Part shown: in pieces, positions 1 through 24,244 of the stretch
How positions within the stretch are numbered: position 1 is the stretch's first letter
How the letters are laid out: each line of letters opens with the position of its first letter
NCBI GenBank assembly: GCA_038247045.1
Contig: JBBRVK010000002.1
Location: 1-41,359 of the forward strand
From: Minisyncoccia bacterium
Lineage (GTDB): Bacteria; Patescibacteriota; Minisyncoccia; Phycocordibacterales; UBA9973
DNA: 41,359 nt
Direction: 5' to 3'
Notes under the pieces: model-generated
What the model was told of the DNA's origin: nothing
Databases searched by the model: none
Seen by the model: the letters and a program-made list of their open reading frames with translations, nothing else
Made by a program: the position numbers and the translations under genes

Positions 1-84
1 GATTTGAGGGGCGTGGAGCGTAAGATTATCTTTCATTCTTTTCAAAATAAGTTCGCGCAAAGGATAGGATTTCACCACAATTAA
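1..84 (+). CDS. 3' end of an unidentified ORF entering from the left window edge (partial)
   Basis: Frame 1 is open from nt 1 to TAA at 82-84 (...DLRGVERKIIFHSFQNKFAQRIGFHHN*). The stop lies inside the 75-120 hairpin. No family recognised; too short to judge. Confidence 0.25.
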   Translation, partial: DLRGVERKIIFHSFQNKFAQRIGFHHN

Positions 85-120
85 AAAACCTTCGTTCCGA
101 CGAAGGTTTTTTAATTGTGG
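75..120. terminator. Bidirectional terminator-like hairpin with a 20-bp perfect stem
   Basis: Arms ccacaattaaaaaaccttcg / cgaaggttttttaattgtgg around loop ttccga, with A/T runs within the arms. It lies between convergent transcription units. Confidence 0.6.
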
Positions 121-310
121 AGACGAGCAAGCCATCTGCATGGCTTGCGTGCGGGAATCGAACGACGGAACGATATTTTCTCACCAGAGAAAATACGTGA
201 GTCGGTGACCAGACAAAACTTTTTGACGAAAAAGTTTTAATCGAGGTAGATAAGGCTACTGCCGGTCCCACAATCAAAACTATTTCAATAATGAATAATT
301 ACTATTTTCT

Positions 311-2329
311 TTATTCTAAAACTTCCTGCACTACCCCCTGTACGGTATCTCCTTCTTCTGGAATTATTGGCTTATGTATAAGATTAGTACTTTTGGGCAA
401 TAAAATTCTCTTACCATCTTTTTCCCCATAATATTTTATTGTTACATTCTCTCCACCAAGTAGCGCCACAACCCTATCCCCAGTTTCAGGCTTTATGCTA
501 AATTTACATAAAACTAAATCTCCATCATTAATACCAGCTTTATTCATAGAATCACCTATAGCACGCAAAATAAAATATTTATATCCTATTTTTATTTTAC
601 TTTTCTCAACCATTATTATTTCTTCTATGTTTTCTTCCCCCATAAGAGGTGCTCCACATGGAGCAGAACCTACTAGCTGTATGCCAATCATTTCTCTTAA
701 ATAAGGAGATTTTACCTTTTGCTCAATAAATTCTTTTTTATTTTCTTTAGGCGTTTTATCTAATATTTGATTGAAGTATTCTCGTAAATTTTCATCCACA
801 ATATAAACATAGGTTCCTTTTATTCCACGAGTAAGTAATGTTTTATAAATATTTATAACATATCTTTCTAATTCACTAGGATCAGAAACACCATTACGTC
901 CATTTGTATCAAAGTATTTTTCTCTATCTACACAAAACTTTTTTATCATAGTATCATAATAAAATTCTGGACCAATGATTACACCAACGTAATTAAGATC
1001 ATAACCTTGCACTGTATGAATACAACCAACTTCATTAATTGCATTCGGTGAATTAACCCAGTCTTGAGCAGTAGAATTCCAGATCAATTTTAAACCATTT
1101 ATTTCAATATCATGTTTTTGAGTAGATTTACTTCCTGGTTTTGTATGCCATGGCCAAGCATAACCAGCAACAACACGAGAAAGCTTATGTTTTTTATCCT
1201 TTGTTTTTATCTCATTAACCATTTTTTCTATATTATCAAAAAGTCTGAAGTCGTAGTTTGAAAAATTTGTAACACTAGGTGTTTTTAAGTCAAAAATATC
1301 TTCTATAAAATTTATAAAATCATCACCAGCTTCCACTCGCATTTGAGTACTAAGCTGATAATACTTTGGTTTCAAATTTTTAAAATCACTTGATCTAATG
1401 TCTGCAGGTTTAACACTTTGATTCTCATCATAAAAAAATATCTGGTGTTTAGATGAATTCATAATCCAATCAAGTTGTGTTGCTTCTTTATCTAATCCTA
1501 ATGTCTTGTTTACATTATCATAAGCTTCATAACCCATGATACCTTTTCTTCTCTGCAGTCTGTGTGATTCGTCCACAATTAAAACATCGTATTTATCTTT
1601 TATGACATCATTCGGTCCGATTACCATATTTGATTTTAATCCTTTAATTTTTGAAAATACTCTGCTTATTGTCTTACGTAGATTAGACATGGGCACAACC
1701 AGCCCAATCTTAAGATTTTTAGTTTCTTCTTGTTCTTTTAAATATTTAAAAAGATATGTAGCTAAAATTGTTTTACCTGTTCCGGGTTTACCATTAACGA
1801 TAACTGTATTTGTTAAATTATTTTTTATATCTTTAAAAATCTTTTTAGCAGCAGAAAACTGATCTTCTGTTAATGATTTGTATGGTGAATATTTAAACAA
1901 ATCACTATTTTTCAAATCCTCAAGAGTATTTCTAACAATTCCTTTTTCTCTTAAATCATCCCAAGCAATTTCAAACTTTGTTTTGTATTTAACCCTATCG
2001 TAGTAGTTATGATTTTTTAAACCACCATTACCATTTTGAATAACGTATTTCCCGTCAGCAGAAATATACTGAATTAACCAAGATTCAATATCTAAAGTAG
2101 CTGATTTATTATATTCTTCATCTGTTATTATATGAATATTATTTAATTTCTGCCTTTCTGGATTTTCAAAATGCTGCTTACTTCTATAGTAAGCACTCGT
2201 AGTTTCACCTATATAAATTTCTTCACCGTTTTCAATAATATAAACAACAGGCCAATTTTTACCAAATTTGTAATTTTTTATTTGATCAAATTTATCTTTA
2301 TCAAAAGGAAAAGTTTTTATTTCAGACAT
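311..2329 (-). CDS. GIY-YIG-like / DUF2075-type P-loop (SF1 helicase-like) protein fused to a C-terminal LexA/UmuD-type S24 peptidase domain
   Basis: 672-aa ORF. N-terminus VVYIIENGEEIYIGETTSAYYRSKQH...LDIESW is GIY-YIG-like. Walker A VNGKPGTGKT, Walker B VLIVDESHRL, IHTVQGYDLNYVGVIIG. C-terminus LVGSAPCGAPLMG...AIGDSMNKAGINDGDLVL...GDRVVALLGGENVTIKYY...KRILLPKS matches the LexA C-terminal domain motif by motif. Confidence 0.85.
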   Translation of the reverse strand: MSEIKTFPFDKDKFDQIKNYKFGKNWPVVYIIENGEEIYIGETTSAYYRSKQHFENPERQKLNNIHIITDEEYNKSATLDIESWLIQYISADGKYVIQNGNGGLKNHNYYDRVKYKTKFEIAWDDLREKGIVRNTLEDLKNSDLFKYSPYKSLTEDQFSAAKKIFKDIKNNLTNTVIVNGKPGTGKTILATYLFKYLKEQEETKNLKIGLVVPMSNLRKTISRVFSKIKGLKSNMVIGPNDVIKDKYDVLIVDESHRLQRRKGIMGYEAYDNVNKTLGLDKEATQLDWIMNSSKHQIFFYDENQSVKPADIRSSDFKNLKPKYYQLSTQMRVEAGDDFINFIEDIFDLKTPSVTNFSNYDFRLFDNIEKMVNEIKTKDKKHKLSRVVAGYAWPWHTKPGSKSTQKHDIEINGLKLIWNSTAQDWVNSPNAINEVGCIHTVQGYDLNYVGVIIGPEFYYDTMIKKFCVDREKYFDTNGRNGVSDPSELERYVINIYKTLLTRGIKGTYVYIVDENLREYFNQILDKTPKENKKEFIEQKVKSPYLREMIGIQLVGSAPCGAPLMGEENIEEIIMVEKSKIKIGYKYFILRAIGDSMNKAGINDGDLVLCKFSIKPETGDRVVALLGGENVTIKYYGEKDGKRILLPKSTNLIHKPIIPEEGDTVQGVVQEVLE

Positions 2330-2331
2330 AA

Positions 2332-2679
2332 TTATAGTTTATTATATTTTGTGTGCTTCCCCTTTGATTTCTCTATTGGGTATTTTTCAGCATTCTTTCT
2401 CATTTTCTTTTCCGTAGCTTTTATAATATCTATTTTCAAATCATGACTTAAAAGAAGTATCCAATAAAATACATCAGCAAGCTCTTCCCCAATATGCTCT
2501 TTGTGAGTTTTCACATATTCTTCAATTTCTTCCTTTGATTTCCATTGAAAATGCTCTAACACTTCAGATGCTTCAAGTGACAAAGAAATAGCCACATCTT
2601 TAGGATTATGAAACTGTTTCCAGTCTCTTTCGTTTCTAAATTTTAGAATTTTTTTGGTGACTTCCTGAATTTCTGACAT
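2332..2679 (-). CDS. MazG-like nucleoside-triphosphate pyrophosphohydrolase (small all-alpha dimeric type)
   Basis: 115 aa. Carries the metal-binding EXXE / EEXXD motifs (LEASEVLEHFQW ... IGEELADVFYWILLLS). Its stop codon is 2 nt upstream of the ATG of the 311-2329 ORF. Confidence 0.8.
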   Translation of the reverse strand: MSEIQEVTKKILKFRNERDWKQFHNPKDVAISLSLEASEVLEHFQWKSKEEIEEYVKTHKEHIGEELADVFYWILLLSHDLKIDIIKATEKKMRKNAEKYPIEKSKGKHTKYNKL

Positions 2680-2685
2680 GTTTAA

Positions 2686-2714
2686 ATTATCCCATAAAAA
2701 TAAGCTTATTACAA
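2686..2714 (-). promoter_or_regulatory. Putative promoter of the MazG-like/DUF2075-S24 operon
   Basis: Minus strand reads TTGTAA - 17 nt - TGgGATAAT (extended -10). The -10 ends 6 nt before the ATG at 2679, implying a leaderless or near-leaderless mRNA. Confidence 0.35.
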
Positions 2715-2968: not shown

Positions 2969-4390
2969 ATGATAGAAAAGAAAGAAGAAGAAAATGATAA
3001 CTCAGAAGTTATTATTATCGAAAACCCTGAAATAGTTGGTGATGATTATACTGGAGAAATTATCTCTGTGCATACCGGATATGTGTTCATCGGTAACATA
3101 AGGTCTGCATACGCAGCCACTGAGACGAACGGCCATGTTTTTTGCCCCGTTAATCCACAATCAAGTTTTCAACCGGGTGAATTGGTTAAGTTTTCTAAAC
3201 TTAATCCCGACAAAGAACGAGCTGGAAAATTCCGGACCGAAAAAATCCGAAAAATTCAAACAGGACTTGCCATCGATACTCCCGAAGGGAGAATGACGGC
3301 AATCGCAAATTTATCAAAGACGACTTCGCCTTATCATCAGCTAAAGAAACTCATTAATGATAATGATCTTTCAAAAGCCGGTGAAAATAAACCTTTTATT
3401 GAATTCATCCAGCAAATCGGCTGGCTGCTCAACCAAAATGGTGGCTACAACCCTGAGGACATTAACAAACTCGCAGAAAGTTTTGTTGAAAAAACTTTTG
3501 CAATGCTGAAACCTCTTGGGGTTAAATGCTCCATCATGGGAGATGTCGATAAAGCAGGTGAAGAACAGATGATTAATGAGACCATCTCTCTTTATCAAGA
3601 AAATGCCCTACAGGGACAAGCGGAATCTTTGCAAAAAGAATACGCCCAGTTTTTGAAGGTAAGGGAGGCATTTACTTTGATGCACCAAAATGGATTACTT
3701 GACTATAGCTCAGTGATTGATATCAAACACTTGGCTGAATTAACTTTTGCCTTCCCAGTTTGGTTCGTTAGTGCAAAAGAAGGATTGCCGGATTTAGCTA
3801 GAGTTGAAGATCCGTCACCTGATCACGCAATAAGCTTCTTTTCAGACTGTATCGGGTCACGTGAATATGCCTGGTTTTACCAATTGTACAACCGACGGAC
3901 TCGCCCCTTATCCCAATTTAAAGGTAAGGATATCATGCCCCCTTCTATTGTTCGGGTGATGAAACAGGCTAAAGAAATATTTGATTACGTAGCCATTATG
4001 ACTCCATATCACGATGTCGCATCGAAAGAGTGGAGTGACCCTAATTGGCTAAGGAATATCGACCCAATTATGGTCGGATTTCTGAGAGGCTTACCCCACA
4101 TGTTTGTCTTGGGACGTTGGAGTGGTACTGGAATTTTTCCGATGCTGTTGGATTGTATTGCAGACACCGCAAATCATATTACAATCAACAAACATCTGCT
4201 TAAAAATTTTATGTATAACTCTTACTGGTACAAGGGTTTAACAAACGGGATGCTTTCAACAGACAACGACGGTGAATCCGTTTTGAATAAATATGCGGGT
4301 AAGCTTTTACTCGCTTACGAGAGGGGAATATTATTTGGTTTCTTGAGGGGTGAATTAAAAGATAATCCGGGATACAACTATTGGGAATAA
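2969..4390 (+). CDS. Hypothetical protein, GC-rich orphan; N-terminal ~70 aa possibly OB/cold-shock-like
   Basis: Long uninterrupted 473-aa ORF with its own promoter and terminator. GEIISVHTGYVFIG...HVFCPV...PGELVKFS resembles a CSD/S1-like barrel. The rest is unrecognised. Confidence 0.75.
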   Translation: MIEKKEEENDNSEVIIIENPEIVGDDYTGEIISVHTGYVFIGNIRSAYAATETNGHVFCPVNPQSSFQPGELVKFSKLNPDKERAGKFRTEKIRKIQTGLAIDTPEGRMTAIANLSKTTSPYHQLKKLINDNDLSKAGENKPFIEFIQQIGWLLNQNGGYNPEDINKLAESFVEKTFAMLKPLGVKCSIMGDVDKAGEEQMINETISLYQENALQGQAESLQKEYAQFLKVREAFTLMHQNGLLDYSSVIDIKHLAELTFAFPVWFVSAKEGLPDLARVEDPSPDHAISFFSDCIGSREYAWFYQLYNRRTRPLSQFKGKDIMPPSIVRVMKQAKEIFDYVAIMTPYHDVASKEWSDPNWLRNIDPIMVGFLRGLPHMFVLGRWSGTGIFPMLLDCIADTANHITINKHLLKNFMYNSYWYKGLTNGMLSTDNDGESVLNKYAGKLLLAYERGILFGFLRGELKDNPGYNYWE

Positions 4391-4626: not shown

Positions 4627-5052
4627 ATGGAAACTACGGAAAAAAGATTACCAGAAAATGCAACAGAATTACCATCTTTCACGAAAGGTGGAAAAATTTT
4701 AAGCCTTAGAGATATAATTAACAACAAAAAAATTATATCTGTCACCGTAACCTATCTTTCTCAAAAAAGAAAAGTAAAAGCCCCTGGATTTAGAGGATTT
4801 CTAGGAGCGAAAGAAGACTTCCAGGAATTAAAAGAATTAACCATTGAAGACCAAAAAGGTATTTCTTTTAATTTCAAAGACGGAAATGAATTTGCTAAAA
4901 TACGTTTTTACAAAAAAAGAGAATTCGATAAGGTTAAGAACGATGAAGACTATGATTGTAGTACTTTCTGGCGGCAGTATGATTTTTCTAGGGAAATGTC
5001 TTTCCAGATTAATTTTCTCATAAGAAACCTGAAAGACATTGACTGGGTTTAA
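4627..5052 (+). CDS. Hypothetical protein (141 aa)
   Basis: ORF followed by a clean terminator. No recognisable motif, no obvious SD, low GC unlike its upstream neighbour. Confidence 0.55.
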   Translation: METTEKRLPENATELPSFTKGGKILSLRDIINNKKIISVTVTYLSQKRKVKAPGFRGFLGAKEDFQELKELTIEDQKGISFNFKDGNEFAKIRFYKKREFDKVKNDEDYDCSTFWRQYDFSREMSFQINFLIRNLKDIDWV

Positions 5053-7550: not shown

Positions 7551-8286
7551 ATTTATATTCATTTAAAATATCTTTTATCTCATCATCTACTTTTCTCAGG
7601 TCGAATTTTTCTATTACAGAGAGCGAAGAATCTCTTCCCCATCCTCCATTGTTATATCTTGACTTATTAATATCATTGCCATTTTTTATTATAGATACGG
7701 CATATAAATATGATGGATTCTTTTTTCTGTATAGTTCCTGATAGTCCTTACTGTAATAAGCCATATATAAATCATCATCTCTATGGTCCTTTTCTGTTCC
7801 ATAAATTACCCACTCTTCATCTCCATTTTTATTTTTTCGAGGCAAGATATCTTCTTTTGAGGCATGATAAGCAATAAAGCGTTCTTGTTTTAAATTATTA
7901 GATATTAATTTTTTAATCATTTGAGACATATCTATATTACCAGCTCTTATTTCTTTTAAGGAATATAAAAAATACTTATTTTTTAATTCAAATGGTGAAG
8001 AAATCAAAGCTAAATATTCTTCTTCTAAAAGATTACTCGATAGTGTTTCAAATTCTAAAATTTCTTCCTCTTTAAAACCTACACTATTCAAAGATTTAAT
8101 AACAGAATCATATACACCAGTGTTTATAATTAAATCAAATATTAATTTTTTCTTTTCTTCAAGATTTGTTTCTTTTTTTATTTCAGAAATATTTTTATTT
8201 TCATAATAATTAGTATTGTGTTTTTTACTCAAAAAAACTCCCTCTTTTTTTGAGGATACTAAATTTTCTTTAAAAGTTTCTTTCAT
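7549..8286 (-). CDS. Hypothetical protein (245 aa)
   Basis: Uninterrupted ORF convergent with 7237-7533. No family recognised. Confidence 0.6.
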   Translation of the reverse strand: MKETFKENLVSSKKEGVFLSKKHNTNYYENKNISEIKKETNLEEKKKLIFDLIINTGVYDSVIKSLNSVGFKEEEILEFETLSSNLLEEEYLALISSPFELKNKYFLYSLKEIRAGNIDMSQMIKKLISNNLKQERFIAYHASKEDILPRKNKNGDEEWVIYGTEKDHRDDDLYMAYYSKDYQELYRKKNPSYLYAVSIIKNGNDINKSRYNNGGWGRDSSLSVIEKFDLRKVDDEIKDILNEYK

Positions 8287-24162: not shown

Positions 24163-24244
24163 CCCCTGACCCCGGGTCAGGGGAACCCTTATAATACAAT
24201 CTTTATTGCGATACCCCAGATAGGGCCTAAAGCCCTATCTGGGG
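24163..24244. repeat. Composite hairpin-TATAAT-hairpin element, copy A (82 nt)
   Basis: cccctgaccccgggtcagggg aacccttataatacaatctttattgcgata ccccagatagggcctaaagccctatctgggg. Confidence 0.75.

Follow-up and report, generated by a model that had tools for sequence, protein, structure and literature searches.

Why should a nuclease-helicase end in the self-cleaving domain of a LexA-type repressor, and what ties it to a nucleotide pyrophosphohydrolase encoded immediately upstream? Both questions are raised by a two-gene cassette in a 41,359 nucleotide (nt) stretch of DNA from a Minisyncoccia bacterium, which is referred to here as the window and whose numbering is used for its coordinates. On the minus strand of the window, an open reading frame (ORF) of 115 amino acids (aa; 2332-2679) is followed by one of 672 aa (311-2329). 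The first encodes a MazG-like protein, and the second encodes a fusion protein that joins a very likely GIY-YIG nuclease domain, a Schlafen-type DUF2075 helicase and a Peptidase_S24 domain. The same architecture and gene pairing recur in other genomes, the catalytic residues of all four predicted activities are intact, and the S24 domain is modular, being present in some members of the family and absent from others.

Architecture and catalytic residues of the cassette

An earlier sequence-only reading of the window had placed the pair at 311-2714 and had described a nuclease-like N-terminus, a DUF2075 core and an S24 C-terminus, encoded behind a MazG ORF that stops 2 nt before the ATG. This layout is borne out by Pfam, PDB and fold matches, and both ORFs are real; the proposed end at 2714 exceeds the MazG ATG (2679) by 35 nt, which is trivial. 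The coordinates also agree with the described junction, in that the TAA stop codon of the MazG gene lies at 2332-2334 and is separated by a 2 nt spacer from the ATG of the fusion gene at 2329. The motifs that had been named were all located, namely GKPGTGKT (residues 180-187), LIVDESH (residues 250-256) and IHTVQGYD (residues 437-444), together with Cys558-Gly559, Ser594 in GDSM and Lys632 in VTIKYY. The features of the cassette are as follows.

311-2329, minus strand: fusion protein, 672 aa, GIY-YIG / DUF2075 (Schlafen-type superfamily 1B (SF1B) helicase) / Peptidase_S24; stop codon at 311-313
2332-2679, minus strand: DCTPP1-like MazG (all-alpha NTP pyrophosphohydrolase), 115 aa, upstream gene of the cassette; Pfam PF12643
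2006-2329, minus strand: very likely GIY-YIG nuclease domain, residues 1-108; catalytic set Y30, Y39, R49, H53, E82, N99
755-1819, minus strand: SF1B helicase / DUF2075 core, residues 171-525; Walker A at 1769-1792, Walker B at 1562-1582
692-754, minus strand: flexible linker from helicase to S24, residues 526-546; low confidence in the structural model
314-691, minus strand: LexA/UmuD-type S24 domain, predicted autoprotease, residues 547-672; Pfam PF00717
653-658, minus strand: predicted scissile bond Cys558-Gly559, from alignment to LexA Ala84-Gly85 and UmuD Cys24-Gly25
548-550, minus strand: Ser594, predicted nucleophile (GDSM), from alignment to LexA Ser119
434-436, minus strand: Lys632, predicted general base (VTIKYY), from alignment to LexA Lys156

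The ORF of the fusion protein is uninterrupted, and the same full-length architecture is present in more than 120 independent clusters (90% identity), so the fusion is real. An assembly or frameshift artefact is ruled out by the continuous ORF, by these clusters and by cultured Bacteroidota that carry the fusion.

The C-terminal domain is the feature that sets this protein apart. The Peptidase_S24 profile (PF00717) matches residues 552-666 with an E value of 4.6e-17 and 62.2 bits (cutoff 23.3), and a PDB sequence search with the domain returns LexA and UmuD chains only (E=5e-10 to 1e-5). HMMER aligns Cys558-Gly559, Ser594 and Lys632 with Ala84-Gly85, Ser119 and Lys156 of E. coli LexA, respectively, and Cys558-Gly559 also aligns with Cys24-Gly25 of UmuD. 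The AlphaFold2 model of the fusion protein, based on 121 homologues, has a predicted local distance difference test score (pLDDT) of 86.6 and a predicted template modelling score (pTM) of 0.72. In Foldseek, the C-terminal part of this model superposes on the E. coli LexA C-terminal domain with a template modelling (TM) score of 0.77-0.81, a root mean square deviation (rmsd) of 2.5-2.9 Å and 32-34% identity. The domain thus belongs to Peptidase_S24 by profile, by fold, by the Ser-Lys dyad and by the (A/C)-G bond, and the complete LexA/UmuD self-cleavage domain that had been claimed for this protein is confirmed by both profile and structure searches. It is preceded by a linker (residues 526-544, pLDDT <50) that is predicted to be disordered and that differs in sequence and length between homologues, and members lacking S24 end near its start.

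A Pfam search finds no helix-turn-helix (HTH) or winged-HTH DNA-binding domain in the fusion protein. The NCBIfam models for lexA (TIGR00498, 62.8 bits against a cutoff of 110.95) and UmuD (53.1 against 110) match the C-terminal domain only, far below their cutoffs. The protein is therefore not a LexA/CI repressor or a UmuD.

The central part is a DUF2075/Schlafen group-3 helicase of the SF1B type, with a full-length profile match (SLFN-g3_helicase/DUF2075, PF09848; residues 175-512, E=2.9e-69, profile positions 3-354 of 354), intact Walker A and B motifs and the helicase motifs. Invariant residues in this core are G180, G183, T184, K186, T187, D253, E254, Q304, R331, H438, T439, Q441, G442 and R501. 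Its Foldseek neighbours are SLFN11, RecD2, Upf1, Dna2 and Dda, with SLFN11 on top.

The N-terminal domain is more divergent. The Pfam GIY-YIG profile gives 18.9 bits at residues 28-60 of the window protein, below the gathering score of 22.6, and 23-36 bits for homologues, many of which are above the threshold. Residues Y30, Y39, G41, R49, H53, E82 and N99 are invariant in both the 121-sequence alignment and a more divergent 26-sequence alignment, and the spacing of the catalytic residues, Y-9-Y-10-R-4-H-29-E-17-N, is presumably close to that of UvrC and I-TevI. When a family profile is compared with the PDB, I-TevI, T4 endonuclease II and UvrC rank first, at weak E values of 0.015-0.09. A separate model of the domain (pLDDT 86) has the N-terminal domain of GRXS16 and the GIY-YIG domain of UvrC among its top Foldseek matches, with probabilities of 0.77-0.85 yet weak E values of 0.1-0.3; the match to the UvrC N-terminal domain has a TMt of 0.61 and an rmsd of 3.7 Å at the same weak E values. 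Because homologues score above the threshold, the catalytic set is invariant and GIY-YIG proteins head both the PDB profile and the fold matches, the domain is very likely a GIY-YIG nuclease. In one relative (P0167), an additional N-terminal HSDR_N domain of the PD-(D/E)xK type stands before the GIY-YIG domain.

The upstream ORF matches the Pfam MazG-like family (PF12643, E=1.3e-16), and its nearest solved relatives are the archaeal pyrophosphatase 4qgp (E=2e-19) and mouse and human DCTPP1 (RS21-C6; E=8.5e-17). Among 40 partner MazG proteins, R18, W20, F23, H24, E36, E39, E42, W46, E66, D69, K92, Y100, G107, K111 and Y112 are invariant. All 15 are identical in DCTPP1 and coincide with its metal ligands and pocket residues. 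The profile match and the ExxE...ExxD metal motif, with E36, E39, E42, E66 and D69 invariant (n=40), place the protein in the MazG/DCTPP1 family. The cassette thus comprises four modules, a predicted pyrophosphohydrolase, GIY-YIG nuclease, SF1B ATPase and S24 autoprotease, each with complete catalytic residues.

Modularity of the S24 domain and pairing with MazG

A scan of GTDB species genomes yielded 44 related loci, and an exhaustive search of 1.84 billion representatives yielded 502 clusters (50% identity) at E<1e-30, of which the best 150 were used for counting S24 domains. The more than 120 clusters noted above are full length, are 67-83% identical to the window protein and carry both PF09848 and PF00717; their sources are NCBI, JGI, ENA and Logan assemblies, and those that carry a name belong to the candidate phyla radiation (CPR)/Patescibacteria. 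Relatives of 720-740 aa that likewise end in S24 are present in Bacteroidota (Marivirga, Indibacter, Mariniflexile and a Flavobacteriales metagenome-assembled genome (MAG)) and in one gammaproteobacterial MAG. In these relatives, S24 has diverged further and carries an Ala-Gly site, and it exceeds the Pfam threshold. A second protein search added more than 100 clusters of the Bacteroidota type, including those from cultured Flavobacterium and from MAGs assigned to Sediminibacterium and Saprospiraceae; in RefSeq, fusions of this type are labelled only "DUF2075 domain-containing protein". The fusion is thus widespread in CPR and cultured Bacteroidota and is not an isolated curiosity.

S24 is present in 19 of the 150 best clusters (approximately 13%). 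Most of the others are 520-600 aa long, and most relatives without S24 end where the linker of the window protein starts. In a neighbour-joining tree of the nuclease-helicase core, proteins with and without S24 are interleaved in at least three regions. For instance, a protein of 573 aa without S24 (P0307) is 88% identical to an S24-bearing Marivirga protein (P0270, locus L029), and one of 524 aa without S24 (L017) is 73% identical to the window protein. The domain also changes in kind. A second CPR subtype (SVGCGE...ATIKEY), found in L011, L027 and L036 at approximately 7580-8020, is 40-46% identical to the S24 domain of the window, whereas the helicases of these proteins are 63-85% identical to that of the window; at the extreme, L011 combines a helicase of 85% identity with an S24 domain of only 45%. 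Such a disparity points to domain exchange between otherwise close proteins. By these sequence comparisons, the S24 domain is an optional plug-in module, presumably regulatory, that has been repeatedly gained, lost and swapped. A separate case is P0265, which has a C-terminal Cro/CI-type HTH_3 domain, the other half of a CI-like repressor, instead of S24.

Three S24 subtypes can be distinguished by their sites (APCG, VGCG and AAAG), and they share 40-46% identity or have diverged beyond the reach of tblastn. Nevertheless, among 27 S24-bearing family representatives, in which the remainder of the protein is as low as approximately 40% identical, the (A/C)-G pair is kept in 26, the nucleophilic Ser in all 27 and the Lys in 26. 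Since 26 of 27 representatives retain the predicted scissile bond, the Ser and the Lys despite this turnover of S24, the self-cleavage chemistry, beyond the mere dimerisation fold, appears to be under selection. The lone exception, P0162, shows that these residues do decay once the constraint is lost.

These data bear on a purely structural explanation, in which S24 would be an uncleaved dimerisation or scaffold module and the Ser, the Lys and the (A/C)-G pair would be leftovers from a recent capture of a LexA/UmuD domain. S24 C-terminal domains are dimerisation domains, and because the fusions appear to be young, with repeated exchange, the residues may have had little time to decay. The retention of site and dyad in 26 of 27 representatives over three divergent subtypes argues against such leftovers, as does P0162, in which decay has happened. 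A role of this kind is therefore very improbable.

The MazG gene is an equally constant feature. A MazG homologue lies directly upstream in 42 of the 44 loci, which span CPR, Bacteroidota, Bacillota and Gammaproteobacteria, and in 38 of 41 loci the ATG of the helicase lies -4 to +6 nt from the MazG stop. The two exceptions are an Erysipelotrichaceae locus without the gene (L039) and the CPR locus L046, where a glyoxalase/bleomycin-resistance-like gene takes the position of MazG. When loci are compared in pairs, the identity of the MazG proteins correlates with that of the helicases (r=0.62 for all loci, 0.28 for the CPR clade alone). In megaplasmids of the Bacillus cereus group, the same pair is found at 33% identity, annotated as "nucleotide pyrophosphohydrolase" and "DUF2075 domain-containing protein". 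MazG also accompanies helicases that lack S24, in all Saccharibacteria loci of this kind, in two of three from Erysipelotrichaceae (L039 being the third) and in one from Bacteroidia.

The adjacency of MazG, which the sequence-only reading had put up for checking in other genomes, is thus conserved. That reading's view of MazG as the partner of the S24 fusion stands as far as the tight coupling is concerned, but the pairing is equally tight in members without S24. For this reason, MazG is not an S24-specific partner; it belongs with the GIY-YIG-DUF2075 family as a whole and not with the S24 switch as such. By analogy with DCTPP1, the MazG protein most likely removes non-canonical deoxynucleoside triphosphates (dNTPs), probably those of 5-modified pyrimidines, and such a role would fit both the exclusion of modified phage bases and the hygiene of DNA repair.

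Genomic context and possible outcomes of the proposed cleavage

After MazG, the next commonest neighbour is TspO/MBR, which occurs in 12 loci at varying positions. No conserved third gene was found, since no other neighbour family occupies a fixed position in related loci. Among 150 flanking proteins, some have toxin-antitoxin (TA) or defence functions (AbiEii, GmrSD_N, SocA/Panacea, DUF3800, NYN, mad3 and PDC-S23), and most are housekeeping or unrelated. In CPR, 2 of 27 copies are disrupted. Taken together, the lack of conserved neighbours, the disrupted copies, the carriage on plasmids and the presence of some TA and defence neighbours point to a cassette that is accessory and probably mobile, and that is neither a core gene nor a classical resident of defence islands.

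The disrupted copies are split fusion genes in L022 (6001-7984; 237+438 aa) and L023 (3476-5490; 407+283 aa), which are either decaying copies or frameshift errors of MAG assembly; the L022 copy also lacks MazG. On the plasmids, L047 and L049 (Bacillus cereus-group megaplasmids) share a recurrent block of a zeta toxin, an HNH endonuclease, one or two hypothetical proteins, the nucleotide pyrophosphohydrolase and DUF2075, and L047 additionally has an ImmA/IrrE metallopeptidase and a second (d)NTP pyrophosphohydrolase near the cassette. Plasmid pLS1 of Fructilactobacillus sanfranciscensis (L048) carries a more distant DUF2075 homologue with no annotated MazG, the PLSDB gene tables being incomplete. 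It is flanked by cytosine deaminase and cytosine permease on one side, another association with pyrimidine metabolism, and by an HNH endonuclease and a DNA adenine methylase on the other. A phage-borne gene was also considered and is ruled out, as none of 50,697 phage records contains a full-length match and 2.9 million IMG/VR contigs contain only five relatives.

In known S24 proteins, the trigger of self-cleavage is activated RecA on single-stranded DNA (ssDNA), that is, RecA-ssDNA filaments, abbreviated here as RecA*. In L046, a canonical full-length LexA, 37% identical to that of E. coli, is encoded 6 kb from the fusion, and S24-type SOS regulators exist in Bacteroidota (PMC8565304). On these grounds, a RecA*-S24 signalling axis is plausible in the host lineages.

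For the self-cleavage, its trigger, the resulting activation, the substrate of MazG and a role in defence or surveillance, we infer the following course of events. In resting cells, the S24 domain would dimerise and/or restrain the enzyme. DNA damage, or the replication of a phage or plasmid, would give rise to RecA*, upon which Ser594 and Lys632 would catalyse a cut at Cys558-Gly559. The cut would free a nuclease-helicase of 558 aa, which could unwind and cut aberrant or foreign DNA, and MazG would hydrolyse non-canonical, probably 5-modified pyrimidine, dNTPs and thereby prevent their (re-)incorporation. This scenario as a whole, a two-gene accessory cassette in which RecA*-stimulated self-cleavage activates a nuclease-helicase, is put forward tentatively, as a possibility that falls somewhat short of probable.

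The direction of the effect is the critical point. The predicted product of 558 aa is within the size range of the natural short forms (520-590 aa), that is, of members without S24. A precedent is provided by Nhi (Staphylococcus epidermidis SERP2475; Bari et al., bioRxiv 10.1101/776245), an anti-phage nuclease-helicase that forms a dimer and whose full-length form shows little nuclease activity in vitro, in contrast to an active truncated form. Activation is favoured here because of this match in size and this precedent. Inactivation by cleavage is equally compatible with the data.

Several observations weigh against the activation scenario. The cleavage of LexA and lambda CI inactivates these proteins. 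The predicted N-terminal product of the Bacteroidota type ends in ...AAA or ...VAA, which we take to resemble the VAA degron of LexA for ClpXP, a resemblance that would argue for destruction of the enzyme. The majority of the family has no S24 domain and presumably does not harm the host, so a restraint on the core enzyme is not obviously needed. As for a role in defence, PADLOC v2 holds no full-length model for the family, and no consistent defence-island context was found in the examined loci. The CPR copies lie among housekeeping genes (RF-1, FtsEX, CTP synthase, IMPDH and GluRS) and the Bacteroidota copies among unrelated genes. RecA was not seen in any examined locus, these being pieces of approximately 14 kb only.

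The first three of these points also speak for a rival reading, in which the S24 domain serves as a safety off-switch. The enzyme would then be a dimer held together by S24 and constitutively active against foreign or aberrant DNA. Upon damage to the DNA of the host itself, RecA*-induced cleavage would monomerise the enzyme and expose a degron, leading to its removal and sparing the gaps, forks and recombination intermediates of the host. Cleavage inactivates all well-studied S24 repressors, as is established for LexA and lambda CI. GIY-YIG nucleases have a single active site and need a dimer for double-strand cuts, as in Eco29kI and Hpy188I, and a dimer would be required here for the same purpose. 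That relatives without S24 are common implies a core enzyme that is active and tolerated without a release step. Additionally, Nhi dimerises, and the C-terminal domain of LexA is a dimerisation domain (PMC8565304). However, with ...APC or ...GC at its C-terminus, the predicted product of the CPR type would have no obvious degron, the Nhi data suggest that truncation activates, and there is no sign here that activity requires dimerisation. An off-switch is a serious rival to activation, although it is considered rather unlikely.

The neighbouring genes and the fold matches are relevant to a further explanation, in which S24 would mainly dock the helicase-nuclease on RecA-ssDNA, as the LexA C-terminal domain and UmuD do, for genome maintenance and not for immunity. 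The enzyme could then act on stalled forks or on intermediates of recombination, or remove RecA in the manner of UvrD, PcrA and Srs2; self-cleavage would serve release or turnover, and MazG would sanitise dNTPs for repair synthesis. This is in line with the presence of SLFN11, RecD2 and Dna2 among the fold neighbours, with the use of the GIY-YIG fold for 3'-incision by UvrC, with the house-cleaning function of DCTPP1-type enzymes and with the housekeeping surroundings of the CPR copies. SLFN11 in particular acts at the ssDNA of stressed replication forks (literature summarised in PMC6765204). L046 (7519-7998 and 15816-16382) may be added to this list, as its glyoxalase/bleomycin-resistance-like gene stands directly upstream of the fusion in the place of MazG and no more than 8 kb separate the genes for EVE, Smr and LexA from it. 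The patchy distribution, variable contexts, plasmid carriage and disrupted copies, on the other hand, are those of an accessory element and not of core repair; docking alone would not require strict conservation of the scissile bond; and most family members lack the docking module. RecA-filament targeting as the main function is accordingly judged unlikely.

The immediate flanks of the cassette in the window contain further features. Just downstream of the fusion stop, positions 60-300 (minus strand) are non-coding and highly structured, with an RNA minimum free energy of -89 kcal/mol (z=-9.05 against shuffled sequences). The predicted fold is multi-branched with a 7-bp closing stem; one piece of it, GTTCGATTCCCGCACGCAAGCCA, is tRNA-like, and positions from approximately 75 to 120 form a strong terminator hairpin. 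Neither ARAGORN nor Rfam (even at E<=1) recognises anything in this stretch or finds a tRNA or tmRNA attachment site by the cassette, and none of the other loci contains the tRNA-like 15-mer. The stretch could represent a small RNA that these tools do not recognise, or a remnant.

Upstream of the cassette, a perfect 17-bp inverted repeat (ATATCACAGATAGGGCC-TAA-GGCCCTATCTGTGATAT, 2737-2773) lies in the divergent intergenic region, approximately 60 nt before the MazG ATG, and a copy matching at 15 of 17 positions is present at 24211-24227. No conserved operator or SOS box was found upstream of MazG, and the palindrome is not shared by the other loci; it is therefore unlikely to serve the cassette as an operator. 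In many loci, the cassette comes straight after a gene of the same orientation. In the window, two ORFs diverge from the cassette, at 2969-4390 (plus strand, 473 aa) and 4627-5052 (plus strand, 141 aa); neither has a Pfam, NCBIfam, PADLOC or PHROGs match or a counterpart in the 44 related loci. The kilobase around the 473-aa ORF has the highest GC content in this part of the window (0.41 versus 0.27-0.34), which suggests a foreign origin.

Relation to known systems

In PADLOC, the fusion protein matches Nhi (E=1e-16) and AbiO (E=6e-15) over the helicase core only (profile positions 173-377 of 470 and 168-375 of 468, respectively), and four other family members give the same partial pattern. 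Given these partial matches and a nuclease fold that very likely differs, membership in Nhi or AbiO was rejected. A PHROGs search returns matches at the domain level only. Full-text searches of the literature turned up no paper linking DUF2075 to MazG, nor one that links it to S24 in any pertinent way; a passing remark mentions that DUF2075 may be fused to GIY-YIG (PMC6765204), and an "Nhi-like" protein has been described by Millman et al. (bioRxiv 10.1101/2022.05.11.491447). The sequence-only reading had likewise known of no named system with this architecture, and the partial PADLOC matches and the literature agree with it. The parts are known; their combination, an S24 domain on an enzyme with a DCTPP1-like partner, is conserved, widespread and undescribed in the searched literature.

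Self-cleavage of S24 domains is the textbook means by which RecA-ssDNA controls repressors (LexA and CI) and one polymerase subunit (UmuD). Here, the domain has been grafted repeatedly and interchangeably onto a nuclease-helicase of 545 aa in at least three phyla. If cleavage gates the enzyme, the signal from DNA damage or ssDNA would act on it directly, without transcription, in a compact and tractable system. A broader proposal is that S24 acts as a portable RecA*-sensing fuse that switches a Schlafen-type nuclease-helicase post-translationally and that, with a DCTPP1-like partner destroying modified dNTPs, forms an immune or surveillance cassette against DNA with non-canonical bases. This proposal is doubtful, although it would have clear consequences if true, as it would provide the first enzyme-coupled S24 switch apart from UmuD and a bacterial counterpart of the recruitment of SLFN11 to ssDNA at stressed forks.

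Regardless of the switch, the pair of a DCTPP1-like MazG and a GIY-YIG-DUF2075 protein constitutes a broad, unnamed two-gene cassette, with hundreds of clusters at 50% identity in CPR, Bacteroidota, Bacillota, Gammaproteobacteria and Bacillus cereus-group megaplasmids. It ties a Schlafen-type helicase to sanitation of the nucleotide pool, which makes it a lead for studies of immunity or repair and of the evolutionary roots of the Schlafen proteins. CPR bacteria have few recognised defence systems, and the cassette is among the few candidates.

A comparison with the closest known systems delimits what is shared. Like Nhi, the fusion protein combines a predicted N-terminal nuclease with a DUF2075/SF1B helicase in a single polypeptide; the nuclease is very likely of the GIY-YIG type and not PD-(D/E)xK, and Nhi has neither an S24 domain nor a MazG partner. 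With LexA, UmuD and lambda CI (MEROPS S24), it shares the C-terminal fold, the Ser-Lys dyad, the Ala/Cys-Gly bond in a strand-loop-strand and the flexible linker, whereas the cargo is a nuclease-helicase of approximately 545 aa in place of the HTH or winged-HTH domain of LexA and CI or the short arm of UmuD.

Eukaryotic group III Schlafen proteins, such as SLFN11 and SLFN14, similarly join a PF09848 helicase to an N-terminal nuclease. A link to ssDNA and replication stress may also be common to both, through RPA-ssDNA in the case of SLFN11 and, as predicted, through RecA-ssDNA here. The Schlafen nuclease, however, is a tRNA/RNA endoribonuclease of another fold, these proteins have no S24 domain, and their identity to the fusion protein is approximately 12%. 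Finally, the MazG protein aligns over its full length with DCTPP1 (RS21-C6) and with archaeal and bacterial MazG-like house-cleaning NTPases, including the ExxE...ExxD ligands and the aromatic and His pocket residues; unlike DCTPP1, it is the dedicated, translationally coupled partner of a nuclease-helicase.

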